The notes beneath the pieces were generated by a model. That model was not told where the DNA came from. It did not search any database and was given only the letters and a program-made list of their open reading frames with translations. This document shows, one piece after another, positions 3,063 to 64,000 of a stretch of DNA of 64,000 bases. The translations under genes and the position numbers were made by a program. Within the stretch, counting starts at the first letter, position 1. Every line of letters begins with the position of its first letter. This stretch comes from Dictyostelium discoideum (lineage: Eukaryota): the NCBI GenBank assembly GCA_000004695.1, contig CM000150.2:4859597-4923596 (forward strand), read 5' to 3'.

Positions 3063-6000
3063 TATCATAATCAAATTTTAGCTCCAGGTACATGCCAATA
3101 TTCACATCCAGAATATTCAGAAACATCATGTTGTACAAATGGTCAAACACTTGTTTTATTATCAAACATGGTAATGGGATCTGCAGTATTTGCACGTTGT
3201 CCAGCATGTTTATTTAATGTATGGGATTTGTGGTGTGCATCATCATGTTCACCATATCAACAATCATTTATGGTACCAACAAGTATCGATAGTAAAACAG
3301 GACAAATCTTAAGCGTTGATTTCGTCATTCATCCCGATTACGCTTGGGGTTTATATAATTCATGTAGTGGTGTAAATTCAGATGGTGCACCACCTTTTGG
3401 TACAATTTTTCATACACCTCAAGATTTTTTTAGTGGTATCTTTGCACTTAATCCAGCATTTTCAATCAATTGGGTTTTCAATGAAACAGGTTATATAAGT
3501 CCAACTGCTCCATGCGCTGAATCTTGTTCATGTGATCAATGTGGTGATGCTTGTGGTCCACCACCTACTGTTGGTGAAATTGGTTTATTTAATAATTCTT
3601 TACCACAAACTTATTTGTTTAATCATGAGTAAGTAGTATTTTTTTTTAAAAAAAAAAAAAAAAATCAAATGATTATCATTTTTAAATACTAAATTTAATT
3701 TTTTTTTTATTTATTTAATTAGAATTCCATTTTTATCAGTTTGGATGATTTGGACATTTATTATGTTTACATTAGTTTTAACATATGGTACTAGTATGGG
3801 ATTAGTTTTATTTGGAAATGTAAAGTTTTTCGATTCAACTAAAGTAAAAGTAATAGCATCATTAGTTTTATCAATTTCATTTATTAGTGCAATTTTAATT
3901 CCATTCATTTCTGGTAAAGTACCACTTCATGATAGTTCATGTCAATGGAAAATGCCATCCGATCAACTTTGGAATTGTTCATTAGCTTTGGGTGTTGGAA
4001 TTTATGAGCTTATTACTTTTATTTTCTTATTTGTCATCTCAATTGTTATCATTGTTCTTTATCATATTGGTTCAAATAATCGTCCAATTCCAGGTTCCTC
4101 TTCAAATGCCTCAGTTGTATATGATGCATTAATTTCTTCCAATAGTAGTAATAATGATAATAGTAATAGCAATAACAATGAACAACAACAACAACAACCA
4201 TCAACAATTATTCAAAGATTCTTTTATTGGTATGGTCATAAAGTTGCATCAAAACCACTTATTGTAATTTTAATTTGTATTATAATAACAGCAGGTTTAG
4301 GTATTGGTATTATAAAATTAGAAATTGAACAAGATCCAGTAAAATTATGGGTTGCACCAGATAGTAGAGCAGCATTAGATAAAACTTATTTCGATAATAA
4401 TTTTGGACCATTTTATCGTGTTGAACAAATTATTATAACACCAAAGAATCAAACTAAATATCCAACAGTTATAGAATATGATTTATTATTGGAATTATTT
4501 GAAATCGAATTATCATTAATGAGTTTAGAGGCAGAATATGAAGGAGAATTGATTACATTGGATTCACTTTGTTTCAAACCAACAAAACGTGGTTGTTTAA
4601 TTGAAAGTACATCTGGTTTATGGCAAAGAAATATTAGTAAACTTAATTATACCCAATCAGAGGAAGGTGTTTTAACCTATTATGAAAATTGTCAATCGAG
4701 CTTACTTCAACCAGATTGTATGGATTCAGTGGGAGCACCAGTTCAACCAAGAGTGGTCTTGGGTGGTTGGGAGAATAATAATTCCTCTGCTGCATCTGCT
4801 TTTGTTGTTACCTTCCTTTTAAATAATCCAACCGATATGGTAAATACCGCCATGGCATGGGAACAAGTTTGGTTGGATCATATCTCTGCCATTGCTGCCA
4901 CTTCTGAAATTTTCGATATCACATATAGTGCCGAGCGTTCAGTTCAAGATGAGTTATCACGTGAAGGTAATGCCGATATTCCAACTATTCTAATCTCTTA
5001 TTTCGTTATGTTCTTCTATGTCTCCCTTTCATTGGGTAGTTACTATCCATTCCCAACTCGTTTCCTCTCATTATTTGTCCGTTCGCGTTTTGCACTTGGT
5101 TTTTGTGGTATCATCATTGTAGCTGCCTCCATCGTCATTAGTGTTGGTGTTTGTAGTATGGCAAATTTAAAGGCAACCTTAATCATTTCCGAAGTAATTC
5201 CATTCCTTGTATTAGCAATTGGTGTGGATAATATTTTCATCATTGTTAATACCTTTGAATCATTACATGTCGTTCGTTATGATCCACATACTCGTGCTGC
5301 TATCCTTCCAACCTCTGAAGATTCATTAGCTCGTACCCTCGCAAAAGTTGGTCCATCAATTGCTTTAGCATCACTCAGCGAATCATTGGCTTTCCTATTG
5401 GGTTCATTAACAAAAATGCCAGCAGTTCAAGCATTCTCTTACTATGCAGCATTGGCAATTTTCGTTGACTTTTTATTACAGGTTAGTGCATTCTCTGCCC
5501 TATTGGTTTTGGATTCTAAACGTGCCTCCTCAAGACGTATCGATTGTTTACCATGTATTGCATTGGAGGATGGTGATAACTCTGATATGGAAGATGATGA
5601 TGATGAAGAAAATGAAAAATTACCATTTGCACGTGCCGACATTAATGCAAACTTTAAAAATTCTCAACCAACCTATTCCACTTCATCATCACCAAAGAAA
5701 ACTACCCTCCTTCAAGTTGTCTTCAAAAAATTCTATGCTCCCTTTTTATTACATCCAATCACAAAGATGTTGGTTATCATTTTCTTTGTTGGTTTATTGT
5801 TGACTGGTATAAACTTTGCCTTCCAAGTCTCGATTGGTTTAGATCAACGTGTTGCCTTACCAAGTAATTCTTATCTTCAAGGTTATTTCAATAATATGGC
5901 CAATCTTTTGGAGGTAGGTCCACCATTTTATATCGTTATCAAAGGTGATTACAATTATACCGATTTTGAATCACAAAATAAACTTTGTACAATGGGTGGT

Positions 6001-7353: not shown

Positions 7354-12972
<5,619 letters not shown>

Positions 12973-13496
12973 TAAAAATATTAAAAAATGAAAAAAATTA
13001 TTATTAATTAATATAATAATAAAAAATAAAATAATATTTAGTTTTTATTACTTTAATATTCAAAACTAAAAAATGAATAAATAAAAATTCTTCTTTTTAA
13101 TTTTTTTAACTAATTTATTCAAAATTTTTTTAGTTTTCCAAAATATATTTTCCTCTTTGGCAATATCTATTCATATCTTTTTTTTACAGATAAAAAACTT
13201 TTTTTTTCTAATATCTAATAAATTTAGTTATATTTTTTTTTTTTTTTTTAAGAATTGAAGTTTCCCTCTTTGAAATTTTTTTTTTTTTCTTTATAGGAAA
13301 ATAAATTTTAAAAGGAAGGAAAAAATTGATTTTTAATTTTTTTTTTACAGAAATAAATGTGGAATAATCACATGTTTTTATTTAAAATAAGTAAATTGTT
13401 TGTTTTTAAATATTTGAATTTGAAACTTTAAAGTAATTAGATTTTTTTTCTTTTTTTTTTTTTTATTTTTAATACAATATACACAAGAATAATTTA

Positions 13497-13537
<41 letters not shown>

Positions 13538-13540
13538 AAA

Positions 13541-15239
13541 TTAATTTAGAGATAAGAATTTGACTCGGATAAATTGATTTCCTTGAATTTTTTGTCCATC
13601 AAGATTTTGTTGAGCTAAAATTGCATTTTCTGCATTATTAAAAGATATGAAACATTTTGTTTTGTTACTATTTGGATTTATATTTATCTATTTTATAAAA
13701 TGATAATAATTAGTAACCAATTTGAAAGAAAAAAAAAAAAAAAAAAAAAAAAGGTAAATTCCAAATAAAACACTTACATTTATACTTTTTAAATCTCCAT
13801 ATTTTGAAAAAATCTGGATTAAATTTGAATATTCTAAACTTCCTTTAAATGTGCAAACCAAAATTGAAACTGAATTATTATTTATAGTTTTAGTATATTT
13901 TGGTGAGGATGGTGGTGATTGTTGTTGCGGTTGTTGTGGTTGTTGAGGTTGGTATTGTTGTGCGTATACAATTGGTTGTTGTGGTTGTGGAATATGATGA
14001 TGATGATGATAATAATATGATGTTGCTGTTGGATATACGTAATAATTTTGATCAGTTGGTTGCCATGAATAACTTTGTTGTGGGGAAGTGGAATGTAATT
14101 CCCCATTTGTTGAGTAAACACCATTTGAATAATGATCATAATAATTATTTGAGTATGAATTTGAATTATATTCCTAATTTTAAAAAAAAAAAAAAAAAAA
14201 AAAATTAATATTAAAATTAAAATTAATAGATAATCTATTTAAACTAAGAGAATATATTAAATATTTACTTGTGATGCATAATAACCTTGATATGGCTCAC
14301 CTTGATAAACATATGAATATTGTGGTGGTGGAGGAATTGATGGTAATGGTGGTTGTGGAATTGATTGTGGTGGTTGTGGAATTGATATTGGTTGTATTGA
14401 TTGTTGCTGCTGTTGTTGTAGTTGTTGAGATGATTGATTATTATTATATTTTTGTGGTTGTGGAGATGATGGACGTTGAGGTTGATTTGGAGAAGATGAA
14501 CGATTTGGAATATTTGTTAAAGAAGAAATTGAGTTAGTTGTGGGACTTGGTGTTAAAGAAGATGTTGATGATATAGATGAATTTGATAATGATAAATAAG
14601 GAATTTGAATTGATTGTTTTTTACCATTAGGTGCATACTTAACTATTTTTTTTTAAAGAAAATATATACATATATACGTACATATTAATATTTGTTTTTT
14701 TTTTTAAGGAATATAAAATAAAATAATATCTTACCAACTAAAGGAGTTTCACCTAAAATTAAAGAACCAGACATTGATTGTAAAGCATTTGTTGAATAAT
14801 GAATATTTGAGAATTTAATAACGCCGGCTCTCTTACTTTTTCCACTACTGGCATCAATTAAAACTTGAGCCTCAATAACTTCACCAAATTGAGAGAATGT
14901 TGAGTTTAAAATTGCATCAGTAATTGTTGGTGATAATACTCTAACATAAAGAGTATTTGATGGATCTCTTTGTTGTTCAGTTTGGGATGGTGAAGTAGTT
15001 GCACCACCATTTGAATCTGGTACACAACAACTAATACCACCATTTCCATTGTTACCTACAAATGGAGACACTGGTGGTGAATTTGATGGTTTCGATAATT
15101 TACATAAAAGTGTCTTATATCCAACTTGATATCTATTCATATTTTTAATTGCTTCACAAGCATTTTCTGGATTTAAAAATCTTACAAATCTATTTAAAAT
15201 ATATTATAATTAATATTTTGGATTTTTTTTTTTTTTTTT

Positions 15240-15282
<43 letters not shown>

Positions 15283-15425
15283 TCATACCCATATCCTAAG
15301 CTATTTCCAGTTTTAATATTAACCATAACTTTTGTATTTACAATTTCTCCAAATTGTTCAAATAGATCATATAATTCTATATTTTTTTATTTATTTAATT
15401 ATTTATTTTTTGGTGATTAAATAAT

Positions 15426-15471
<46 letters not shown>

Positions 15472-15624
15472 ATTAATAAATGAAAAATATTATTTTATTT
15501 AAAATTCAAGAGTATTACCTTTTTCTGAAAAATTACATGGTAAATATTTTACAAAAACATTACAAATATCAACTTCGGAATCTAATTCAAATTCTTGACT
15601 TATTGGTTCAACTTCCATTTTCAT
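13541..15624 (-). CDS. RNA-binding protein with three RRM domains (MSSP/RBMS-like arrangement), 6 exons
   Basis: Minus-strand exons 15519..15624, 15289..15376, 14735..15189, 14269..14642, 13778..14173 and 13541..13687. RRM1 has RNP2 NVFVKYLP and RNP1 GYGFVRF, the latter split by an intron and restored only after splicing. The LLCKLSKP linker resembles the RBMS EPLLCKFAD. RRM2 reads LYVRVLSP...SGKSKRAGVIKF. The middle is a P/Q/S-rich region, and the C-terminal RRM-like domain reads ...LVCTFKGSLEY...KCFISFNNAENAILAQQNLDGQKIQG. Confidence 0.75.
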
Positions 15625-15742
15625 TTTTTTTTTTTTTTTATTTTAAAATTTTATTTTAGGTTTCGGATTGAGGGTGTGAACTTTAATATTTTTTTATTTT
15701 AATATTTTTTTTTTTTTTTCTTTAAATGAAAAGTTAATAATA

Positions 15743-15781
<39 letters not shown>

Positions 15782-16695
15782 CTTATAAAAAAAAATAAAA
15801 TTAATTATAATAATACAAAATGGTTTTTTTATTTTTGTTTTGGTGATGTGTTGTGAAAATGAAAGTGAAAATAATTTTTTTTTTTTTGTTTTTCAAAAAA
15901 GAAAAATAAAGTAAATGTGATTATAATCACAAAAAAAAAAAAAATAAAAATAAAAAAAAAAATAAAAAAAAAAAATTAAAATAATAATAGTTTGATTGGC
16001 GAATGAAAAATATTTTAAAAAATCTAAAATTCTGTGCAAAGTGTATTTTTATTATTTTGATTATTTTGAAATGATTGAAAATTTTTAATTGGTTTTATTT
16101 ATTCGATTGGCAAAAAAAAAAAATAAAAAAAAAAATATAAAAAAAAATAAAAAAATAAAAAATAAAAAAAATAGAAAAAAATAATGGTTATTGGTTTGGA
16201 TATGGACTTATATGAATTAAAAATCTGACAGACGATCACCCTTTTTTTTCCAACCAATCAAATGACCAATTAACCATAATCAAAAGAAAAATATCTTAAA
16301 ACCGACAAAGACATTCGACAAAAAAAAAAATATGAAAAATAAAAAATAAAAAAAATAAAGTAAAAAAAAAAAAAAACTGCAAAAAATCCAAAAAAACGAT
16401 ACTTGCAAAACAAAAAAAAAAAAAATAAAATAAAATGTAATGACCGTTATGGGAGAGAAAAGGTATTTTTTTTATGGTGCACAGAAATATTATTGTTCGT
16501 TTCTAAACAGATTTAAAAAAAACCAAAATTTACCCTAACACTTAATTAATTAATTAATTAATTAATTAAATTATTTTATAGATTTCTGATATATTTGGAA
16601 TATGGTTTTGAAATGATTATTATAATTGATTTAATAAAAAATGTAAATGGTTTTTTCTAAACAATTTTTTACTTTTTTTATTTTTTTTTCAATTT

Positions 16696-16753
<58 letters not shown>

Positions 16754-17444
16754 TTATTTGATTATGGTGAATGTTGTTTAATTATTTTTTATTTTTTTTT
16801 AAAATAGGTTTTTTTTTTTTATAGTTTTTTTTTTTTTTATTTTTTTTTTAAAAAAAAAAAAATAATAACAAAAAATTAAATAAAATAAATTGTTTGAATT
16901 GGAAAGGGTTTTAAATATTTTTTAATATTTTTTTAATAATTTTTTTTTTTTTTAAAAAAAATGATTGCCACAGGAATCGAATAACCATATTTACTAAATT
17001 GTCAATTCGATCGGTTATAATTTTTGTGAAAAAAATGAAAAAAAAAAAATATATACATGCAATCTATGTTTCGAATCAAGATTCCAAAAAAAAAAAAAAA
17101 AAAAAAAAATATGAAAATAAATATCCGAGGTTTTTTTAACGAAACACAAATAACATGAAAACAAATCTAAGAATTAAAACCTCCAAAAACCCTTTTACGT
17201 ATTGGTATCTCTACTTTTTGTGATAAATAAGTTGATCGCATATATTTTTAATTAAAAAAAAAAAAAAATTTTAAAAAAAAATAATACATATGACTTTTAC
17301 TTTTTTGGATTTACTATGCACAAAGTTATTGATTAACTTTAAAATGGTTGGTTATTTTAATTATGTGATAGTTTTGTTATTGAATTTTATTTTGTTTTTA
17401 TTTTTATTTTAGTTATTTTCTTTCTTTTTTTTATTTTATTTTAT

Positions 17445-17475
<31 letters not shown>

Positions 17476-18197
17476 TTCTATCCTTATAAATTTTGTTTTT
17501 TTTTTTTTTTTTTTTTTTTAATTATTTATTTGAAATTATTTTTTATTTTATTTAAATGATTGTTTTAAAATGAAATGAAATAATTTTATTTTCCTTATGT
17601 CAAAAAAAATTTTTTTTTTTTAAAATTAAAAAAAAAAAAATAAAACCCACGAAAATGTATTTTGATTGTTTTGGGGCATTTATTTTAAGATACATGACCT
17701 ATTTTTGGCACCAAATTTTTTTTTTTACAAAAATAGTTTTTTTTCAAAAAAAAAAGACGAAAATTTTAAAATTGGGTTAATGCCCGCATGAATATTTAAA
17801 AACAAAAAATTGCGCCAATTCGATTAACAAGATAATAGGCCCGCCAACTATGTGAATGATATCTCACACCACGAGATTAATAAAAATTTGTGTGAATTTT
17901 AGATTTATTAAAAAAACCAAAAATAAAAAAATCAAAAAAACGAAAGTGCTAATAATATGAACCAATCAAATTTGGTCTTATTTTATATATCTAAATTTTT
18001 ATTATAAATATTTACTTTTATGATGTTTTTTGGATATTGATCACGGTATAATGGTGAATTAATTATCTATAATTGTAATACGAAGGGTTTGATGTAATTA
18101 TTATTTGTGGTGATGATTTAAGCTAATTATAGTTTTTTTTTTTTTTTTTTTTATAATTATAATAATTATTATTATTATTTTTTTTTGAAAATTAAAT

Positions 18198-18231
<34 letters not shown>

Positions 18232-18258
18232 ATTTATAAAAAAAAAAGTGAAGATAAG

Positions 18259-18307
<49 letters not shown>

Positions 18308-19489
18308 AAAAAAACTTACCCAAACATTACATTACGAATAATAAATTTTCTATTATTGATTTTAAAATCATTTAATACTATTTGAACCTTAACGAGAGAG
18401 AGGGGGTGCATTCTTAATTAATTCAATCCTTTTTTTTAACTTGCACTGACGTTCTGGGATGTTAATAATAGAGTGCAGAATTAATTTAATTTTATTTTAT
18501 TTTTTTTTTAATTTTTTTTTTTTTTTGTGAAATTTTTTATTTTAATCATTTCGTGATGGGTAAAAAAAAAAAAAACCACCATCAAAACGACTGTATAACA
18601 ACACAATGAGATAGATTTAATTAAACAAAAAAGCCAAAATTAAACAACGGTTTTTTCCTGGGGAATCTTTCAAAGGGTAAATCTATTAATATGTTTTTTT
18701 TTTTTTCAAACTTTTTTTTTAAATTTATTCCAGAAGATCTACATATTTGCCTTTATTAAGAATAAGAATCAAAAGAAGAGTTTTTTTTATTTTATTAATA
18801 AAAATAATTTCGGTGGGTGTGGGTTGATATAAAAAAAAAATTAAATATTAAAATTTAAAACTGAACCACATTTTTTATTTGAAAAAAAAAAATATCTTGT
18901 GGGTAATACGATTTTGGATATCATGGTGTTATTACTTTGATTATTAAAGATAAGATTTTAATCTCGTCTAAAAATTTTTTTTTTTTGTTTTTTTTATCTG
19001 TTTCTTATAATAAAATTGGAAATAAAAAAGATATATTTTTTTTTTAAAAAAAATAAAAAAAACACAAAAAACAAAATAAAAAAAAAAACATATTGCAATA
19101 TTAAAATCTTAATCTTTCACTGGTTGAATTTTTACTTTTTTTTTTTACTTTTAAAAATTCAACCAGTGAAAGACACGCTCACTTTAAAAATAATTATATA
19201 ACAACAAGATAAATGGTGAGTTTAATTAAAGATTTTATTTTTTTTTTTGGTTTTTTTTTTTTTTTTTTTATAATAAAATTGGAAATAAAAAGAAGTATTT
19301 TTTAAAATTAAGGTGATATTAAAAATAAACAAAGATATTAAATTGTTTATTGTTTTTTTTTATTAGTTTGTTAATTTATAGATTTATCTATAGTTAAATT
19401 ATATTAAACATCAATTGGTTCTTGAATTTCATCAGTTTGAATTGGTTCTTCTTTTGGTGGAGTTGATGGTAAAGTTGATGACAAATGAT

Positions 19490-50367: not shown

Positions 50368-51328
50368 AAAACAAAATTAATAATCCATAATATTTTTTAA
50401 CCTTACAATTAGTATATATATTATTATCTGTTTAAATAAATAATTTTTTTTAACCTTACAATAGAATATAAATAGTATTTTTTTTTTTTTCTTTTTTTTT
50501 TTAATGATTGTAATTGATGGAAAATAAAAAAATAAAAAAAGGTTGTTTTACAATAAATACTTTAACATATGTTTTAAAAAAGAAAATAAAAAAAATAATT
50601 ATCAAAATTAAAATTTTTTTTTTTTTTTCTTTTCAATGGAACTATCAGTGGATAATTGAATTAATTCTGAATAAATAAAGTTATTTTGGAAAAGATCGAG
50701 TTATCCCGGAATAAATTCAGTTATTTCGAAAAAAGTTTATTTTCTTTTGAAAAATTTTTCACTTTTGGTATGTTTTTTTTTTTTTTTTTTTAATAAAACA
50801 CATTATTTAAAACAAAAATTTTAAATAATATTAAACAATATTTGTTAAGACCTATAGTAGAATTTGGTTGTATTTATGGAGAAATAAAGAAAATATAAAA
50901 AAAAATGAACTTCGAAAAAAAAAAGGAACATCAAAAAAAAAAAACTACATATAAAAAATAAATCCTTTATTTGAACCCCGGTATTTTTGTTTTTTTTGTC
51001 AATCATACTATTAATTTTATTTATTTATTTATTATATTTTTTATTTTAATTGTGAATAAATGAAAAAAATTAAAAAAAAAAAAAATAATATGGCCAATGA
51101 AAAATTTTTCGCCAAAAGAAAACTGTAATTAAAAAAAAAAAAAAAAAAAAAAAAATAAATTAATTATTTTGTAAATTTTGATTATATTAATTTATACACA
51201 CAATTTCATTACCAAAAAATACTTGGCTATCGGAAATATAAACTTTAAGATTGTGGTTTTTTTCACCATTTGAATAAATGGCTAAACTGTCAGCTACTTT
51301 TGTTCTTGTGTTACTATCCTTATTACTT

Positions 51329-51700
51329 CACAGCAAAGAAAAATGCACCTTTAAAGCCAATTTCAAGCAAATACAATTTAAATTTGCTTTAAATTGGCTT
51401 TAAATTTGCTTTTTAAAAAGGTAATTTTAAAGATATTTTTAAGGTCATTTAAAATTACATTAAAAATGACCTTTTAAATTTATTATAAAGCGGTTTTTAA
51501 ATAATGTTTTAATCACTTTATAATAAATTTAAAAAAGTTATTTTTAATGTAATTTAAAATTACTTATCAATCCTTTTTTAAGCTTTTATTAATTATATTT
51601 TTTAAAATACATTTTAAATGCATTTTAAATACATTTCAAATCAATTTTTACACTATTTATTTCAAATTTATTAAAAAAAAAAAAAAAAAATAAGAAAATA
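51329..51700 (+). repeat. CACTA/EnSpm-like transposon terminus, copy A: TIR CACAGCAAAGAAAAATGCACCTTTAAAGC followed by degenerate TTTAAA-rich subterminal repeats of about 10 bp
   Basis: The same 30-bp terminus recurs at 53270 (same orientation) and inverted at 53875..53904. The subterminal block is made of tttaaa(g/t)g..-type repeats. Confidence 0.55.
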
Positions 51701-52360
51701 AAAAAAAAAAAAAAAATTAAGAAAATTATAAAAAAAAAAATTAAAAAGATAACCAAATTAATTTTAATTCTTTATTTATTTGTTTCAGTGGCAATTGAAT
51801 TCTATTATTATTATTTTTATTAATTAATAATAAATAAGTGTTTCAGTTGCCTTGGGTTTTATATTATTTTATTTTAAATTTTACTTCTCATTTCAAAAAG
51901 CGAAAAATATCAAAAAAAAAAAAAAAAAAAAATTTAATTATTTGTTTTGCATATTTATATTATAAGTATAAACATACATATAAAAAAAGATTTTTTATTT
52001 TTTATTTTTTATAATTAATAAACAATTAACGAGTGCACAGGTATATTATTGCATTAGTGTAGTTTTACAATAAATTGGGCAGATTTTATAGTTTTTTTTT
52101 TTAATATTTTAAAAAGAAAAAGGTATAGACAGGGTCATAGGTTCCCCGTCATTTTTTGAAAATGGGGTATATCCCTCTAAATATAAAATTCTAAGTACTA
52201 AATCATATATCTACTTGCTATAATGCTAAAATTTGAATAAAATGAAAAAAAAAAAAAAAAAAAAAAACGTAAAAACTCGAGGAAAAAAAAAAAAAAAAAA
52301 TATTATTTTTAATTTCCAGCCAGCAAACAAAATGAATTTAAATAACATATCATGCATTAA

Positions 52361-53269
52361 TTGCAGAGAAAAATTAAAGAATTTAAAAATATTATTATTC
52401 ATTATATTATGCATAAAAATATATGTCCATTTTGTCTTGCATATTACCGTTCTTATAAACAATTTTATGATGTAAATGGACATTCCAACACCAAAAAATG
52501 TAAAAATGAACAAAATAAAATTATTACAAATAATCAAAAAAGAGATAGCTTTTATAAAAAATTAATGGATATTACTGGTGAAAAAATAAAATATCCAACA
52601 AATGATCCAGATGACCCATGTAAACATTTATGTAACCAAAACCAAGATGAAATTTTTTATCAAGAAAATAATGAAAATAATGAAAATAATCAAACAATTG
52701 ATAATGAAGAAAATCATGATATAATTGGGTTGGTACATAGTGAGGATGAAAACAATGAAATTAGAATAGATGAAAATGAAGCAAACATTAATAATGAAAA
52801 TAATGAAAATAATGAAAATGAAAATGCTCAAAACGAACCAATAAATAATAATCTAAATAATAATTTAGATAATGAAAAATCAAAAAAAAAATTAAATGAA
52901 ACTGAAATTGAATTTTTAATGTTGGGAATTGAAAACTCAATAAGTTTAAAGCTACTTGAAAAATTTAAAAGTTTTATTGACAAAAATAAAACCAATTTAA
53001 ATCAAATAAGATACACACCTCAATATATGGATAAATTATTTATGGAAGATTTTCAAATAAAAGGAGAAACATTTATAAATAAAAATTATGATCACTCAAT
53101 TTTTTATTTTGAAATTAAAAAAGTATTAGAAACTTTATTAAATAAAAAGCAATTTTTTGAAAGAATAGATTTTGATACAGATTTTGAAACTGGAATTTAT
53201 ACAAATTATAAAAGTGGTCAACAATTTAAAGATTTAAAAAATAAAAATAAAAATAAAATTGTTTTACTT
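52361..53269 (+). pseudogene. Transposon-associated ORF (Cys-rich N-terminus, N/E-rich middle) truncated by the TIR-bounded insertion at 53270
   Basis: ORF ...ISCINCREKLKN / CPFCLAYYRSYKQFYDVNGHSNTKKC...; a frameshift links it to the 52233 ORF. Its reading frame runs straight into the TIR CACAGC at 53270, where the last residues are encoded by TIR sequence. Confidence 0.4.
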
Positions 53270-53904
53270 CACAGCAAAGAAAAATGCACCTTTAAAGCAA
53301 ATTTAAAGAAAAGTTGATTTAAATTGGATTTAAATTGAATTTAAAGCCGCGTTTAAAAAATTCATTTTTAAGGTAATTTTTAAGGTAATTTTTAAGATAT
53401 TTAAAAATGCCTTTAAAATTTGCTTTAAAATAAATTTTTAAGCAATTTTAAAGGTGATTTTAAAGGTGATTTTAAAGGTGATTTTTAAGGTAATTTTTAA
53501 GATAATTTTTAAGATATTTAAAAATACCTTTAAAATTTATTTTAAATTAATTTTAAATAGGATTTAAAGTAGATTTAAAGTAGATTTAAAGTGAATTTAA
53601 ATTTCCTTTAAACATAAATTTAAGGTTTTTAAAAAAAAAGATCTAATTTTAGAACAAAAAAATGGGGATAAAATATTCTATCATTTTTAAATTTTCATCA
53701 AAGCAATCAAATGGTGTAATGGTTGATGAGACTACCCTTTGATAGAGGGTCGGGGGATCGAATCCCTTTTGGTAATTTTTGAAAAATTAAAAAAAAAAAA
53801 TTTTAAAAATTTATCCGTTAAATAACGGCTTCGAACTCAGGGACTTTAAAGCAAATTTAAATTTAATTTAAAGCGAATTTAAAGGTGGTTTTTTCTTCGC
53901 TGTG
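53270..53904. mobile_element. 635-bp non-autonomous (MITE-like) element bounded by about 30-bp imperfect terminal inverted repeats (CACAGCAAAGAAAAATGCACCTTTAAAG ... CTTTAAAGGTGGTTTTTTCTTCGCTGTG), carrying subterminal TTTAAA repeats and a tRNA-like gene
   Basis: Left and right termini are reverse complements (24 of 28 positions). The interior is (ggtgattttaaa)3, (gtagatttaaa)3 and similar. It lies between two transposase-like ORFs. Confidence 0.55.
53703..53776 (+). tRNA. tRNA-like gene or pseudogene (candidate anticodon GAU, Ile-like) with an imperfect cloverleaf and a downstream extra-B-box-like motif
   Basis: D-loop AATGGTT with GG; anticodon arm ACCCT-TTGATAG-AGGGT (5-bp stem, U33, GAU, A37); T-arm/B-box GGGGGATCGAATCCC. 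A second B-box-like GGCTTCGAACTC lies about 55 bp downstream (53830), as is typical of dictyostelid tRNA genes with ex-B boxes. However, the variable region is only 1 nt, and the D stem (GTGT/AGAC) and acceptor stem (AATCAAA/TTTGGTA) have mismatches, so it may be degenerate. Confidence 0.35.
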
Positions 53905-53909
53905 TTAGA

Positions 53910-54722
53910 ATATTCACTGATAGTATGCAGTGTCAAAACAAGAAAGATTATACTATAATGCTGGATATAGAAAATTATATTGGAAATGAATTTAAAAATA
54001 ATAAATTATTATTATTTGTAGTACCAAATGATTGGTTACTTAATTTTCATCAAACAATTAGGGCATTGTTTTCATCTTTTATTGGTAATGGGTTTAATTT
54101 AATTATTGAAAATGAACAAATAGATGTTGTACCGTTTGGACTGACAATGGATATTCCAGAATTTAGAGCATCGTGTAAACTTAATGGACATAATTCAAAT
54201 GAATATGCATGTCACACATGTGACAAACCAAGAGATGGTTTATTTATTTGCAAATCAGGTACATTAAGAAAACAAGAAGATATTACAAATTTTCACTCCA
54301 CCAAACCAAATTATGCTGAACTAAATGCTGATATAGAATTAAAAAAAGTATGGGAAAAAAAAGCAAAAGATATTGGTATCAAAGGTGTGGACAGAGGGTG
54401 GGTCGAACCTTTGTCCATTAATTATTTAAAAACACAACCAGACATTTTACATAATATTTTATTAGGTGTCGCACAAAGATGTTTAAATTACATTTTTGAT
54501 AAATATAAAAATAAAATTGCAAATTTTTTAAATAATTTAAAAAATGCAAAAATAATAGATAACAAACCAAAACCATCAATTTCACTATTTGCAAATAAAA
54601 CAAGGAAAGGAAGAGAGAATAGATCAATATTATATTACTTTTTAATATCAATTAAAAATCAAATATCAAATGATGATTTTTTAATTATGGAACAATTAGT
54701 AACTATATGTTTTAAATTTTAA
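53910..54722 (+). pseudogene. EnSpm/CACTA TNP2-like transposase fragment
   Basis: ...FRASCKLNGHNSNEYACHTCDKPRDGLF... and KGVDRGWVEPLSINYLKTQPDILHNILLGVAQRCLNYIF resemble the plant/fungal tnp2 transposase core (D[VI]MH[IV]EKN...). The ORF has no ATG until 53925 and begins in frame immediately outside the right TIR at 53904. Confidence 0.45.
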
Positions 54723-54929
54723 TTATAATAGTAAATATTGGTAGAAGGGCTCATTTTAACCTATATTTAATATTGGAAGAAGTATTAAATAGTTTATTAC
54801 TTTAATTTTTTTCACAAATTTTTAAATTTTTTTTCCAAAATTTTTTTTTTTTTTCCCATATAAAATAATTAGTTTTTACTTTTCTATTTATTTTTTTATT
54901 TTAAATAAAATTTTGATTACGTTAATACA

Positions 54930-55530
54930 AAATGTGTAAAACAGGCCAGATTTAAATAATTATAAAGTTAAATTTGTTGAAAATGTAATTTCTCCATTTA
55001 AATAAATAGTTTTTCAAAATATGATTTTTTTAAAATTTTCCATATTAAAAGATTTTTTTTTAAAAATAGTTTTTTTTTTCATTTTAAATTCAAATGTTTT
55101 GAAACTGGCTTAGATAACACAAAACAGGCCAGATTTTAGTTTAGTGAAATTTGGATTATTAAAAATTAAAATTTAAATACAAATTCTATAATTTACTGAA
55201 AAATGATTTTTTCCATTTTTTTTCAAAATTTTTTTTTTACATATAAATATTTACTTTTTTAAATTTAGCTTATTTTTTTATTTTACTTTAAATTTTACTT
55301 TAAATATGTAAAAGTGTGTAAAACAGGCCAGATTATAGTTTTGTAAACTTTAAATTTATTTAAATTAAAGTTAAAATAACAAATAGTATAATTTACTGAA
55401 AAATGATTTAAAAAATTTTTATTTTACTTATAAAAATTTACTTTTTTAAAATTATTTTAAATTCATATTTTACTTTAAATTCAACTTTAAATATGTCAAA
55501 CTATGTAAAAGAGGCCAGATGATCGATTTT
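54930..55530. repeat. Four tandem repeats of about 190 bp, each containing AAAACAGGCCAGAT (units start at about 54931, 55121, 55311 and 55497)
   Basis: Direct comparison of the four units; typical of transposon subterminal tandem arrays. Confidence 0.75.
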
Positions 55531-56246
55531 TAGTTTCTTAATTATTTTAAATTGAATTTAAGAAATTAAATAGTGTGATTTTGTAAAATATGTTTTTTAT
55601 ATATATATATTTTTTTTCCCTATACAAAACTATATAAAATAAAACTCTGTTATTTTTTTTATATTATTTTAAATTCCATATAAACAATGTTATATGTCCC
55701 ATGCCAAAATTACCATATTAATTTCAGCAGCCATATTAATTTTGGCATGGGACTTAGGTCTGCCAAAATTACCTTATTAATTTCAGCAGCCATATTAATT
55801 TCAGCATGTACATAGCTGCCAAAATTAATATGGTAATTTTGGCATAGAAAAAAAAAAAGTCAAAGTCATTTAATTAATAATCATCTCAAATATAAACAAA
55901 ATTTTAGTACTAAAATTAATATTATTATTATTTTTATTTTAATAATTATAATAATAAAAAAAAAAAAAAAAATTTTCATATTATTTTATTTATATCTTTT
56001 ATTTATTTTTATCTTTTTATTTTTATTATTAATTTTATAATTTATTTTCATTTCTTTTTTTTTTAGTTGATATATATTTTTTTATTATTCATTTATTTCT
56101 AAGGCTAACAAAAAAAAAAAATTAAAAATAAAAAAAAAAAATAAAATAAAAAAAAAAAAAAAAAAATTAAAATAATTTTTTTTTTTTAATTTTTTTTTTT
56201 TAATTATCTACTCTTCTACTTACTCTTTTGTTACTAACAGATGAAG

Positions 56247-56449
56247 TGTTGTAGGGAATTTTCCATAAAATTTCACTACAGTAGCGTAGTGAATTTTATT
56301 ATTTAATTTCACTACAGTAGCGTAGTGAAAAAAAAAAATCACTGACCTTAAATTTTTTTTTTTTTCAAAAAACAAATAAAGTTTATTAAATTGAAATTTT
56401 ATTTTTTGTTTTAATTATTATTTTATTTATTTTTATTATAATTATTGTT

Positions 56450-56482
<33 letters not shown>

Positions 56483-59400
56483 CAATTTTTTTTTTTTAAA
56501 TTTTTTTCAATTTTTATTTGTTTATTAAATTGTAATTTTATTTTTTGTTTTAATTATTATTTTATTTATTATTATTGTTAATTTTTTTTTTTTTTCAATT
56601 TTTTTTTTTTTAATTTATTTTTATTAATTTATTTTTATTAACTCCCTGAGTTGTTCAATTGCTTGATTTACCATATCACTGTAAACACTGCACACAATTG
56701 AATTTTTTCTAGCTTTGTTACCTCTGGTGCATTTGATGTTTTTGCATTTTCCTTTGTATACAAAAAAGTCCAAATATAATTCGTTTTCTATTACAGTTTT
56801 TACACAATGTTGGTGAAATTGTTTTGATTTTAATTCTAATGCTTCTAACATCATATTTGAATTTTTAACGATTAAAGCATCACCACTATTTACATATAGT
56901 ACTTTGGCTGCTTTTTCGAGGAATTTAGTCAAATTTTCCTCTGAATCTAACTATTCTTCATTGCCATATTCAATGGCTAAATTTCTTAAGAGTTTTATCG
57001 AATCTATTAATTCTTCGATCATTCTTTTTTTTTGAAATTTTTTTTTATTTTGTTTTTTCAATTTTTTTTTTTTATTTTGTTTTTTCAATTTTTTTTAAGT
57101 TTTATTTTTTTTTATTTTTTTTTATTTTTTTTAACAAATGTAATTTTTTTTTATTTTTTTCAATTTTTTTTTTTTTTAATTTTTAATTTTTTTTTTTTTT
57201 TTTAATTTTTTGTGTTGATTTGTGTTTTTTTTGTTTTTTTGATTTGGCCACTTGTTTTTATTTTCTAATTTCCCCATACCCCCTTCTATTAATTGCAACC
57301 AAATCAAGTTCTAATTTTTGTGTCCTTGTTGACTTTGTTTTTGCAACTTTTTTTGAAGGTATCACATTAACGATTTTTCCTATTGATGGTGATTTGGAAG
57401 GTGATTTAAATGGTGATTTAAATGGTGAATTGGAAGGTGATTTAAATGGTGAATTGGAAGGTGAAATGGATGGTGATTTGGAAGGTAATTTAAATGGTGA
57501 TTTGGAAGGTGATTTAAATGGTGATTTAAATGGTGAATTGGAAGGTGAAATGGATGTTGATTTGAGAGGTGATTTGGATGTTGATTTGAGAGGTGATTTG
57601 GATGGTTTAGAATGTGATTTTAAAGGAGGTTTATTAACAATTGGTATCTTATGAGGACGGCCTCTGAGACGTTTAACAGTTGTTACTATACCACTACCAG
57701 ATTGTGGTATAGTATATGATGGTATTATTTGCACTTGAGGTATTGGTGGTACTATTTCTTTTAAATTCATATCCTTTCTCAAACAATTCATTAAATTTGG
57801 CGCTGTTGGATTATTATTTAAAAATGGGAGTATTTCTTCTTGTTCCATTTCATTATTGAGTTTGTGTTGAAATGGATTATCGTTAATGATAGGTGGAATA
57901 TTTGATGGATTGTTAAGAGCATCTTCCAAAACCCTAAATGGATCATTTTGTGTTACCAATTGATGCAAGTTGAAATTGGATAAATCCTTACCAAGATTTT
58001 TAATAAACTGAACCAGAAATTCAATAACTTTCCCATCATTATTTAAATAAAGACCAGAAGTAAAAGAATCAATATCTTTTTGTATGTTTGGCGATGTTCT
58101 AAAAATATCAACTGTTGATTGTTTATAAAGAACCAACTTGTTACCTCCTACAAAACCAGAGTATAAACCTTTTTTTTGAAGGCTATTGATTCCATCTTCC
58201 AAAAATTCAAGTTTATAAAGTTGTTTAGTGTCTTCCTGTATTACCTTATGAATTTTACACAAAATCAATATTTTCTATTAGAATTAAATATAAAATTTGT
58301 TAATTATTACTGTTTCATATATTATTAATCTTTATGTTTTAATTACTTACATTATTTTTTTTAATTTCTAGAAAGAGTACAGTATCACCAACTTTCAATC
58401 CCTTTGGTGGTTTTGAATTCCATTGATTTTGGTAACTTGTGAGATTTTCAAGAATAATAGCTGTTATTTCTTCTTTTGAAACATCTGAAACACCAATTGA
58501 TTGAGAGTCTTGTTCTGATTGCACATTAATAAACAAAGGTACAATACCAACAGCTTGAGATGGTGTCATTTTAATTGTTCTTGTTTTTGTATTATTGTAA
58601 TCATACAAAGCTTGTTTTAATAGTTCAGAAAGAGACCTAGAAGTACCATCAAGAAAACTAAAATTTATTTATAAATGATTAATTAATAAACATATCGATA
58701 ATTTATATTGTTCAAAATATCATACTCTTGTTGTTTTAATTTTGAGATCCTCTCCTTGATAGTTCGATTCAATCTTTCTACCATACCTTGAGTTGTTGGT
58801 GTACGAGGAGCTCCATGTGCTGACTTGGAGCCTGGAAAAAGTTTTAGGAATTCTTTTTGGACTTTGTTTTTAAATTCACGTCCATTATCGCAGTGCCATA
58901 CTTTCACAGAGTTTTAATATAAAAGTTACAAAACATCATATAAAAAATGATTGATACCAAACCTTTTATTCTATTTCGTTGGCAAATGTCACACGTATCT
59001 ACTGCATCAGATACAAAAGAATACAATCCCATATTATAATATTTAGTCTTGTAGTTCCCATAGGTTGCATCTCTTCCTATATGACCTTTATGCATTTCTT
59101 CCCAGAGTGATACCATTCTATAATCATTAATTACTTCTAAACACACTTCTTTTGATATATTTCTATCTCCGCCACAATTCATGACTTTTTTTTCAATTCT
59201 AAATAATTTTTCTTTTCTGTTTCTGTTTTTTATTGGTCAGAATTTAAAAAATGATTGTGTTATGGTAAGGAAAAATATTTACTCATCATGTAAAAATTTA
59301 TAATTTTTATGTTTAGTATTTTCAAAATTATTATCTTCAATAAATTTTAAATAATTTATTCTGTTTCATTTTGGGGAAATGAAAATAAAAAAAAAAAAAA

Positions 59401-59692
59401 AAAAAAAAAAAGTTTTGTTGGGGAAAAAAAAAAAAAATTTTGGCGCAAAAAAAAAAAAAAAAAATAAAATAAAAAAAAAAAAAAATAAAATAAAAAAAAA
59501 AAAATAAAAAAACTTAAATAGAACTAATAATCAAATAAAAGATAATAATTTAATAAACTTTATTTGTTTTTTGAAAAAAAAAAAAATTTAGGGTCAGTGA
59601 TTTTTTTTTTTCACTACGCTACTGTAGTGAAATTAAATAATAAAATTCACTACGCTACTGTAGTGAAATTTTATTGAAAATTCCCTACAACA
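56247..59692 (-). mobile_element. Tdd-4/Ginger2-type DNA transposon (retroviral-integrase-like transposase, TIR-bounded), 3446 bp, with a 5-bp TSD TGAAG
   Basis: TIRs of 100 bp or more run TGTTGTAGGGAATTTTCCATAAAATTTCACTACAGTAGCGTAGTGA..., present at 56247.. and inverted at ..59692, each with an internal direct duplication of AATTTCACTACAGTAGCGTAGTGA. TGAAG lies at 56242..56246 and at 59693..59697. Size, TIRs, introns and the integrase gene match what is known of Dictyostelium Tdd-4 (3.8 kb, 5-bp TSD, integrase-like ORF). Confidence 0.7.
57258..59182 (-). CDS. Integrase-like transposase of the Tdd-4-like element (HHCC zinc finger + DDE core + C-terminal tail with SPxK repeats); interrupted by short introns
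   Basis: Zn finger H..GH.G...C..C (HKGHIGRDATYG...CDICQRNR). Core WHCDNGREFKN...HGAPRTPTTQGMVERLNRTIKE. C-terminal region ...GLKVGDTVLFLE. Tail (SPLKSTSK/SPFKSPSK)n. Junctions fit GT...AG introns (for example, donor GTATGA and acceptor TTTTAG between 58683 and 58608). Confidence 0.65.
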
Positions 59693-59697
59693 TGAAG

Positions 59698-60317: not shown

Positions 60318-61119
60318 GAGTTTTTTTAATTTATTTTTATTATTTTTTCAATTTCTGTTGCAGAAAGTTGATTATTTAATTTATTGTCTTTACTGAAGAC
60401 CATTTTTTGGAACGAAAACTTTAAAAAAATAAAAAAATAAAAAAAAAAATACTTTTTTTTTTTAATTTTTTTTTTTATATTTTTTTTTTTATATTTTTTT
60501 TTTTTAAATTTTTTTTTTTAATTTTTTTTTTTTATTTTATTTTTTTAAAGTTTCGAACAATTATATATAAAAAAAAAGTAAAAGATATCCCTTCGGTTAA
60601 TTAAATAATAATAATAATAATAATAATAATATAATAATAATAATAATAATAATACTTATTTCGAAATGTTTAAACAATCATACAGTTTAAAATTAAATAA
60701 ATTGTTTTAAACCACCACTTTTTTTGAACACATGAAAATAAATAAGATATAAAAATAATAAGATAAAAAAAGATTTTTTTTTTTTTTTTTTTTTTATTTT
60801 ATAATTATTCTTGTCGTCAGTATTGTTACTATAATTAATCCCATGAGTTTTTTTTATTATTATTTTTAATTCTTTTATATTTGAGATGATTATTATTAAT
60901 TAAATGACTTTGAGTTTTTTTTTTTATATTTCTATGCCCAAAATTACCATATTAATTTCAGCAGCCATATTAATTTCAGCCTAAAATAGTTGGTCTGTGC
61001 ATGCCAAAATTAATATGGCTGCTGAAATTAATATGGTAATTCTAGCAGACATAAGTCCCATGCCAAAATTACCATATTAATTCCAGCAGCCATATTAATT
61101 TTGGCATGGGACAGTTATA

Positions 61120-62057: not shown

Positions 62058-62750
62058 ATGTCGCATAATAAAAGATTAATTAAACAAACTTCTAGAACAA
62101 CACCAGATTTTAGTTCTATTAGAAAAAAACAATTCATTAAAAAGATTGTATATGTTAAAAAACAAGAAGATGTATCTTCATCATTAAAAGATGTATCCTT
62201 ATCTTCATCACCAACAATTAATAATGATCTTATTACTAATTTTGATCAAATTGCAGTGTTAATTGAAGATATTTCTATTTCTAATCACCAATTTGAAAGT
62301 AGTGACAGTGATTGTAGCAGTGGTGACGGTTTCAATGGTGGTATCTTGAAAAATAGTGACAATGAATTTGAAGGTGCACTTGACCATCAACATAATTTTT
62401 CTTATAGAAAAGAGGAAAAAAATGAATCATCAAAGTCAACAAAATTGGTTACTGAATCAAGTATTGAAATTGATAGTTCAAATCCAATTTCTACAAAGTT
62501 TAATAGAAGTTATCCAACAATCAATTCATTAAATGATGTTAATTTTAACAAAGAATACTTGATTCGTAAAGATTCTAAAGTCAAATCAATTATTTATTCT
62601 TCTGATGATGAAAAAATTGGTAGTGGTAGTGGTAGTGGTAGTGGTAGTGGTAGTGGTAGTGGTAGTGGTAGTGGTAGTGGTAGTGGTAGTGGTAGTGGTA
62701 GTGGTAGTGGTAGAATCCATCTTCTTTGCCCATCTCTCCCATATTTCTGA
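62058..62750 (+). CDS. ORF of 230 aa, S/D-rich, ending in a (GS)n tract; possibly a retroelement gag-like or spurious ORF
   Basis: Clean ATG, no introns, higher complexity than the surrounding sequence. No recognisable domain. Confidence 0.25.
   Translation: MSHNKRLIKQTSRTTPDFSSIRKKQFIKKIVYVKKQEDVSSSLKDVSLSSSPTINNDLITNFDQIAVLIEDISISNHQFESSDSDCSSGDGFNGGILKNSDNEFEGALDHQHNFSYRKEEKNESSKSTKLVTESSIEIDSSNPISTKFNRSYPTINSLNDVNFNKEYLIRKDSKVKSIIYSSDDEKIGSGSGSGSGSGSGSGSGSGSGSGSGSGSGSGRIHLLCPSLPYF
62620..62710. repeat. (GGTAGT)n hexanucleotide microsatellite, about 15 units
   Basis: Seen directly; encodes (GS)n on the plus strand and (TT)n on the minus strand. Confidence 0.9.
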
Positions 62751-62830
62751 AAGGAATCTTGGATCTCTATCGGAGACGATTGTTCTTGGATAACCATGGA
62801 GTCTGAACACATGATTCAACAATAATTGAG
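62712..62830 (-). pseudogene. Fragment of a Ty3/gypsy-type (LTR retroelement) integrase catalytic core
   Basis: The minus-strand reading LLNHVFRLHGYPRTIVSDRDPRFLSEIWERW matches the conserved h.HG.P..IvSDRD..Fts.FW block around the catalytic Glu of gypsy/Ty3 integrases. The upstream sequence is not integrase-like, so only about 35 aa remain. Confidence 0.5.
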
Positions 62831-63900: not shown

Positions 63901-64000
63901 NNNNNNNNNNNNNNNNNNNNNNNNNNNNNNNNNNNNNNNNNNNNNNNNNNNNNNNNNNNNNNNNNNNNNNNNNNNNNNNNNNNNNNNNNNNNNNNNNNNN
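63901..64000. other. Assembly gap (100 N)
   Basis: Run of N characters. Confidence 1.

Follow-up and report, generated by a model that had tools for sequence, protein, structure and literature searches.

Three nested dead copies of one DNA transposon family, very probably DDT, and its likely CMC/CMCT-type transposase in Dictyostelium discoideum

The locus described here occupies positions 51142-54722 of a 64,000-nucleotide stretch of the Dictyostelium discoideum genome (contig CM000150.2, positions 4,859,597 to 4,923,596; hereafter the window). With high confidence, it is understood as a nest of three inactive transposon copies, all from a single cut-and-paste DNA family, very probably DDT, whose transposase is a DDE enzyme of the CACTA/Mirage/Chapaev group (CMC) or, in the wider sense, of the clade extended by Transib (CMCT). 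Element positions refer to a complete coding copy at a related locus, L005:5218-10251, which comprises 5,034 bp between TG/TG target-site duplications (TSDs) and carries the transposase gene together with a second open reading frame (ORF). The ends of this reference are intact, its transposase gene is frameshifted near element position 2200, and its gene model (P0036, 20 identical members) splices the DxxH motif out; the sole uninterrupted A-type protein seen is P0033, from D. cf. discoideum. The features of the locus are as follows.

51142..51328, minus strand: fragment of an older copy (blastn, 90.9% over 187 bp; reference positions 3943-4129, second-ORF region)
51329..54721, plus strand: 5' half of an autonomous-type element, the larger element (blastn; reference positions 1-2566 of 5,034; interrupted at 53270-53906)
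51329..51357, plus strand: left terminal inverted repeat (TIR) of the larger element, exact CACAGCAAAGAAAAATGCACCTTTAAAGC
51358..51650, plus strand: subterminal region; TTTAAA-type repeats of 11-12 bp, present in both orientations (Tandem Repeats Finder arrays 51377-51412 and 51601-51648; repeat families D1, D6, D11 and I22)
52332..53269, plus strand: transposase pseudogene, N-terminal part (ATG at 52332; translation and alignments)
53268..53269: TSD TT, left copy (single TT in the paralogous empty sites, ...gttttacTTagaatatt...)
53270..53904, plus strand: short non-autonomous element, 635 bp, with imperfect TIRs at 53270-53298 and 53876-53904
53713..53770, plus strand: tRNA-like block in the short element, read from the sequence (A-box-like TGGTGTAATGG, B-box-like GGGATCGAATCCC)
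53905..53906: TSD TT, right copy (reading frame and empty-site comparison)
53907..54722, plus strand: transposase pseudogene, catalytic-core part, with the following motifs placed by hhalign and joint alignment
53919-53921, plus strand: Asp codon of D1, RIFTDSM
54150-54152, plus strand: Asp codon of D2, TMDIPEF
54210-54221, plus strand: C(2)C motif, CHTC
54438-54467, plus strand: DxxH motif, PDILHNILLG

The 29-bp terminus CACAGCAAAGAAAAATGCACCTTTAAAGC is present exactly at 51329 and 53270 on the plus strand (0.00 expected from shuffles), so that the first 29 bp of the short element are identical to the left end of the larger one, and a diverged inverted form, CACAGCGAAGAAAAAACCACCTTTAAA, ends at 53904 on the minus strand with agreement in 24 of the first 27 bases. 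An earlier note, made from the letters of the window, had recorded these three termini, each followed by TTTAAA repeats; that description holds, with two of the copies exact and the inverted one diverged. The repeats past all three termini have a period of 11-12 bp, and TTTAAA reaches a density of 14-17 per 500 bp near the termini vs a mean of 2.5 for the window, the composition of which is 77% A+T. The same left-type terminus also opens full-length or gene-bearing copies at loci L001, L003, L004 and L005, and every copy of the family is bounded by CACAG...CTGTG termini. Colinear blastn blocks, at 84-96% identity, relate reference positions 1-412 to 51329-51777, 380-1752 to 51915-53269 and 1751-2566 to 53905-54721. 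Homology stops at 54718-54721 in comparison with all four paralogous loci, and the larger element has no counterpart to the reference beyond position 2566, its right half, right terminus and second TSD being gone.

Four paralogous copies (L001, L003, L004, L005) are colinear over the site at 53270 and show a single TT there (...gttttacTTagaatattc...); these empty sites identify the 635-bp segment as an insertion that made a 2-bp TSD. It contains no ORF of at least 60 amino acids. The upstream frame (52361-53269) extends into the terminus at 53270, and past the insert an open frame starts again at 53907, 3 bases after the inverted terminus. Deletion of 53270-53904 together with one flanking TT places both halves in the same frame, the joined protein reading ...NKNKIVLL|RIFTDSMQCQNKK..., and all homologues are uninterrupted at the junction (...KIVLLRIFTDSMQCQ...). 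Because the frame is restored by removal of the insert, and because paralogues and homologues are contiguous across the site, the two frames are the halves of a single transposase gene. They had previously been read as a zinc-finger ORF (52361..53269) and a TNP2-like ORF (53910..54722); both frames do abut the termini as then noted, whereas their status as two separate ORFs is not upheld.

A 2-bp TSD is found in 9/9 complete elements across loci, the chance of a 2-bp flank match at the present base composition being ~0.1 per element:

Window, short element 53270-53904: TT
L001 8904-19187: GA
L001 15674-18515: TC
L001 15996-18076: TA
L001 11470-14325 (B-type): AT
L004 7227-9148: AA
L005 5218-10251: TG
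L006 4043-4801: TT
L006 4841-5599: TT

Readings of 3 bp fail, with CTT vs TTA in the window and TTG vs TGG in L005. The entries from L001 form a nest in their own right: the A-type copy at 8904-19187 harbours insertions that each have their own 2-bp TSD, namely the B-type derivative and, at 15674-18515, a short element whose tRNA-like block in turn holds a 2.1-kb deletion derivative (15996-18076).

In the window, the fragment at 51142-51328 matches the reference on the minus strand, and the junction comparison has the reference sequence continue over the break at 51328/51329; the larger element therefore sits inside the remnant of a third copy. The arrangement of three termini is thus one of three nested layers, and it is fixed in a second strain, as judged from the orthologous locus. 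The proposed order of events starts with the 5-kb autonomous-type copy, which would have inserted into the older copy that survives only as 51142-51328. The 5-kb copy would then have received the short copy in its transposase gene, at a point that precedes the first catalytic Asp codon by 13 bases (four codons), with duplication of TT; and the 5-kb copy would subsequently have lost all sequence past position 2566 (window 54721). Alternatively, simple successive insertions would not be the origin of the three termini, and transposition that was abortive or aberrant, or ectopic recombination among copies, would have produced them. We consider this unlikely. In its favour, the hexamer TTACTT is identical before both plus-strand termini (51323-51328 and 53264-53269), and the larger element is broken at 54721 without a recognisable terminus; however, TTACTT pre-exists at the 53270 target in the empty-site paralogues, the reference copy has TTATTT at the other target, and the short element, within an arrangement shared by two strains, has both ends and a clean TSD. 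The earlier proposal of nested or abortive transposition is accordingly borne out for nesting, three layers being recognised from the junction and blastn comparisons, and abortive transposition is retained as the unlikely option just described. Regarding the hexamer itself, it precedes both plus-strand termini though the targets differ, the corresponding empty sites being TTACTT and TTATTT. Homologue P0003, from another locus, reads ...ELL|HSKEKC, and its Leu-Leu would be compatible, at the level of the protein only, with TTACTT before the terminus. The other seven insertion sites lack a TTACTT-like motif. The shared hexamer may represent a weak target preference or a coincidence.

The N-terminal part of the split gene encodes a zinc-finger-like CxxC...H...CPFC pattern, followed by an Asn/Glu-rich linker; the N-terminus of homologues P0003, P0033 and P0036 reads MNLNNISC..KLKNFKNIIIHY. 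The T run at 52382-52384 has lost 1 bp, which frameshifts the N-terminus in the window; one T more is present in L005 and in the orthologous locus L007, which comes from another D. discoideum assembly or strain. At the other end, the frame stops just past the breakpoint, upstream of the H(3)H motif and the catalytic Glu; full-length relatives go on ...ICFKLYSDSF...NFHLLLHYP..SAETFEAQ, and it is the cut in the gene at 54721 that deprives the window copy of both motifs. The coding copy is thus dead in three ways, by frameshift, insertion and truncation, it retains one end only, and no active enzyme can be encoded anywhere in the window. The cluster should be masked as a repeat and not be annotated as two hypothetical genes.

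Three word-indexed homologue searches, including one with a mixed-alignment query, returned only D. discoideum proteins. The 27-38 homologues are all multi-copy hypothetical proteins, and they form two subfamilies ~47% identical to each other. An exhaustive profile search of 1.84 billion representatives reached further, to 19 distant proteins (E 1e-8 to 1e-3) matched over the region from DxxH to the catalytic Glu. Two of the 19 lie above the gathering score of Pfam Transposase_21 (tnp2), and others give weak, sub-threshold matches to DUF4218 or DUF1258. Aligned by hhalign, the Dictyostelium family and these distant relatives score a probability of 99.3% (E 4.5e-20, 396 columns), a value that is partly circular over the C-terminal half, where the family's own profile had picked the relatives, and independent in the upstream extension beyond the selecting region, which brings D1, D2 and C(2)C into register. 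The motifs pair as follows, Dictyostelium first and distant relatives second.

D1: RIFSDSM, LNTDGIQ
D2: TMDIPEF, VADAPAR
C(2)C: CHTC, CNTC
DxxH: PDILHNILLG, AEYLHSVLKG
H(3)H: NFHLLLHYP, NIHQLTHMV
Catalytic Glu: SAETFEAQ, SAFSFEGF

In a joint MAFFT alignment, no variation is seen at H612, H616, G625, F635 and E636 and almost none at C407, C410 and H487; the DDE triad, D310, D387 and E636 in the numbering of full-length P0033, aligns with the catalytic residues (D, D and E) in tnp2-type proteins. Sequence homology to tnp2-type transposases is established transitively in this way, by profile search and hhalign. Hallmarks of the CMCT clade are a C(2)C motif and an H(3-4)H motif, both placed between the second Asp and the Glu, CA..TG termini and TSDs of 2-5 bp (PMC12730594). 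The present family shows C(2)C, H(3)H, CACAG...CTGTG termini and a 2-bp TSD; against the 3-bp TSD and CACTA termini of EnSpm/CACTA in the strict sense, it has 2 bp and CACAG.

Regarding the predicted structure, a first AlphaFold model from a family-only alignment of 13 sequences was unusable (predicted local distance difference test, pLDDT, 37.9), whereas a model from the mixed alignment of 16 sequences is moderate, with a mean pLDDT of 56 and 70-90 in the core. Foldseek on the latter ranks RAG1 first (E 2.7e-7), and the predicted core appears closest to RAG1L, RAG1 and Transib. Among the fold matches in the PDB, which include no CACTA-type structure, the nearest solved relatives are thus RAG1 and Transib. 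The transposase comprises a zinc-finger-like N-terminus, an RNase-H-like core of the order D...D...C(2)C...DxxH...H(3)H...E (P0033 residues ~300-650), and a C-terminal beta domain; full-length copies appear to carry a BAH-like domain at the C-terminus (P0033 residues ~710-815).

Based on the profile search that reaches tnp2-positive proteins, the motif alignment by hhalign and the predicted fold, the family is assigned to the CMC/CMCT clade as a CACTA-like transposon with a 2-bp TSD, and not as an EnSpm element in the strict sense. The tnp2- or CACTA-like core proposed in the earlier note is retained on this footing, although the Pfam search that it had named for the purpose does not detect it; its likening of DILHNILLGV to DVMHIEKNV is matched by hhalign, which aligns DILHNILLG with DxMH; and its EnSpm-type label gives way to the wider CMC/CMCT placement. 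A number of points weigh against the interpretation as a whole. Neither the window protein nor its full-length relatives (P0033, P0031, P0036) match Pfam Transposase_21, DUF4218 or DUF4216 at E<=10, and PDB sequences, when searched with a profile, yielded nothing but low-complexity noise. The partial circularity of the hhalign score and the moderate quality of the mixed-alignment model belong here as well. As the larger element lacks its right end and second TSD, a single junction is all that indicates its insertion into the older copy, and the name DDT rests on description and not on the consensus sequences of DDT-A and DDT-S. Pfam assigned no further family with significance to the window protein, nor to the intact P0033 (831 amino acids) and P0031 (818 amino acids), and it gave no match for the second ORF (three exons) of the full-length copy.

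Membership in another superfamily (hAT, P, Transib proper or one so far unrecognised), with the tnp2 resemblance reflecting no more than a general likeness of DDE folds, is regarded as quite improbable. The TSD is 2 bp, as compared to the 8 bp of hAT and P elements and the 5 bp of Transib; the distant relatives are positive for tnp2 or DUF4218, not for hAT or P; the C(2)C and H(3)H motifs stand at positions diagnostic of CMCT; and RAG1L and RAG1 score well above Hermes in the fold comparison. There is very little probability that the transposase gene has an intron in the 635-bp segment. Automatic gene models at related loci do splice around such insertions (the P0001 gene extends over 2,592 bp for 653 amino acids), but the junctions offer no in-frame GT...AG, the segment is missing from other gene copies, as the empty sites attest, and it is found alone elsewhere, so this candidate was rejected. 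That the terminus and its TTTAAA repeats form a tandem or dispersed satellite next to unrelated ORFs, as tandem 11-12-bp subterminal arrays in an A+T-rich genome could suggest, is rejected as practically without chance on the evidence of inverted ends, of the precise empty site in four paralogues, of near-identical 759-bp copies in unrelated flanks with TSDs of their own, of ORF halves that join in frame, and of the TSD check set by the earlier note, in which duplications of 2 bp were present at the terminus copies of all nine complete relatives.

DNA transposons of D. discoideum comprise three families, Tdd, DDT and thug, with transposases described as resembling nothing known (PMC5633606). 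DDT has two large forms and one short form (A, B and S). The DDT-B consensus is 5,471 bp long and includes an A/B-box motif (PMC9012585). DDT makes up ~20% of the chromosome-end centromeres, where it is fragmented by nested later insertions and clusters with Tdd (PMC2665215). In the present analysis, an A-type form of 5,034 bp, a B-type form with its own TIR and a short form of 759 bp were seen. The B-type has the terminus CACAGGGGCGAAAATC and repeats of 13 bp, AATAAGTATACTT; its B-box-like motifs lie at a distance of 310-390 bp from the left end, and in both L002 and L006 other insertions interrupt its copies. The last 10 kb of the window are transposon debris that includes a Tdd-like element and long terminal repeat (LTR) fragments and ends in a gap; a distance of 20-41 kb separates the orthologous locus from the end of a 3.2-Mb contig. 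Given the host, the two coding forms with a short form, the A/B-box of the B form, and the nested fragments that group with Tdd close to chromosome ends, the family is very probably DDT, matched by published description rather than by consensus alignment, with the large copies as DDT-A and the short copy as DDT-S. The earlier note had been unable to place the element in a named family, and DDT very probably fills that gap. The designations DDT-A, DDT-B and DDT-S, for 'Dictyostelium DNA transposons', reportedly go back to Glockner et al. in 2001. The pile-up of broken copies is ordinary for the D. discoideum genome and a previously described component of it. The window itself is of little importance, as a typical dead cluster of nested DNA transposons at the edge of a chromosome-end repeat region.

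The short element is ~99% identical to the 759-bp copies at L006:4043-4801 and 4841-5599, each of which has unrelated flanks and a TT TSD, except that it has lost 124 internal bp at 53841, between short CAGGAC repeats. The orthologous L007, 99.65% identical over the locus, has the undeleted 759-bp form, so that the deletions at 52382-52384 and at 53841 are specific to the present assembly; the 1-bp and 124-bp losses are either true strain differences or assembly errors. Shared termini, the lack of an ORF, a TSD of its own and near-identical copies in L006 and L007 characterize the element as non-autonomous, in the manner of a miniature inverted-repeat transposable element. It is structurally complete save for the internal deletion, and it is probably a DDT-S copy. 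The tRNA-like block is kept in all copies of the short element, including the diverged one in L001. ARAGORN detects no tRNA there, and Rfam none at E<=1, the latter yielding only sub-threshold microRNA-hairpin noise from palindromic repeats. A second B-box-like motif, GGCTTCGAACTCAGG, lies in the opposite orientation at 53826-53843 and is likewise kept in all short-element copies. The A/B-box motif of DDT-B has been reported as a target of TRE5-A.

By analogy with the superfamily, the binding sites of the enzyme would be the CACAG termini or the subterminal repeats of TTTAAA type, and the second ORF's product would possibly take part, as in En/Spm; excision would be followed by integration through a 2-bp staggered cut, in a cut-and-paste manner; and the short element would have been moved in trans by transposase made elsewhere. 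It is conceivable, though doubtful, that DDT represents a distinct amoebozoan branch of CMCT in which the BAH-like C-terminus acts as a chromatin reader and steers insertion into heterochromatic, centromere-proximal transposon clusters, with the A/B-box modules of the short forms able to recruit the RNA polymerase III machinery or to attract TRE retrotransposons. If true, steering by the BAH-like domain would account for DDT landing in DDT. We found no paper that places DDT in a superfamily, and the superfamily placement and the BAH-like domain may both be unreported in the Dictyostelium literature. The study has importance in making the DDT transposase assignable to the CACTA/Mirage/Chapaev-Transib-RAG1 group, with identifiable catalytic residues; the superfamily placement, the 2-bp TSD and the BAH-like domain offer testable handles on how DDT chooses its centromeric targets.

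Downstream of the nest, the window contains further repeats. Directly past the breakpoint of the larger element, 54722-55690 consists of ~190-bp repeat units, each with GTGTAAAACAGGCCAGAT, and no match to it was present in the related loci fetched. Inverted repeats of ~320-380 bp at 55690-56012 and 60732-61113 (69% identity, with cores of 43-62 bp at 92-98%) contain hairpin-forming units, TGCCAAAATTACCATATTAATTTCAGCAGCC, and lie on either side of a Tdd-like insertion with its surroundings; a further element may have its ends in them. That insertion, at 56247-59692, is a Tdd-4-like DNA transposon with genes on the minus strand, among them an intron-containing rve-type integrase gene, with inverted ends TGTTGTAGGGAATTTTCC and the TSD TGAAG at 56242-56246 and 59693-59697. 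L007 lacks the element and has a precise empty site with one TGAAG; the insertion is strain-polymorphic, hence recent. An LTR-retrotransposon integrase fragment, HGYPRTIVSDRDPRF, at 62586-62822 (minus strand) overlaps a perfect (TGGTAG)16 microsatellite at 62618-62713, and a gap of 100 N at 63901-64000 closes the window.

Lastly, compared to known systems, the family differs from Transib, RAG1 and RAG1-like (ProtoRAG) elements in that the sequence relatives of its protein are tnp2-type and that a RAG2-like partner is absent; Transib and RAG make 5-bp TSDs, hAT and P elements 8-bp TSDs. With Mirage and Chapaev, it has in common the motif set and the CA..TG termini, and some of its distant relatives match DUF1258 weakly; a 2-bp TSD is a hallmark of Mirage. 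Plant CACTA/En-Spm elements (TNP2/TnpD) are alike in termini that start with CAC, short subterminal repeat arrays, a second ORF in the full-length element and abundant non-autonomous deletion derivatives; they differ in a 3-bp TSD and CACTA termini, as opposed to 2 bp and CACAG here, and in that the present proteins are not scored directly by Pfam tnp2 and the second ORF is without detectable similarity. The closest correspondence is with DDT itself (Glockner & Heidel 2009, PMC2665215), to which, as compared by description and with no known difference, the family is alike in its host, in two coding forms of ~5 kb next to a short non-coding form, in the A/B-box-like motif of the B form, in fragmentation by nested insertion and in its clustering with Tdd near chromosome ends.

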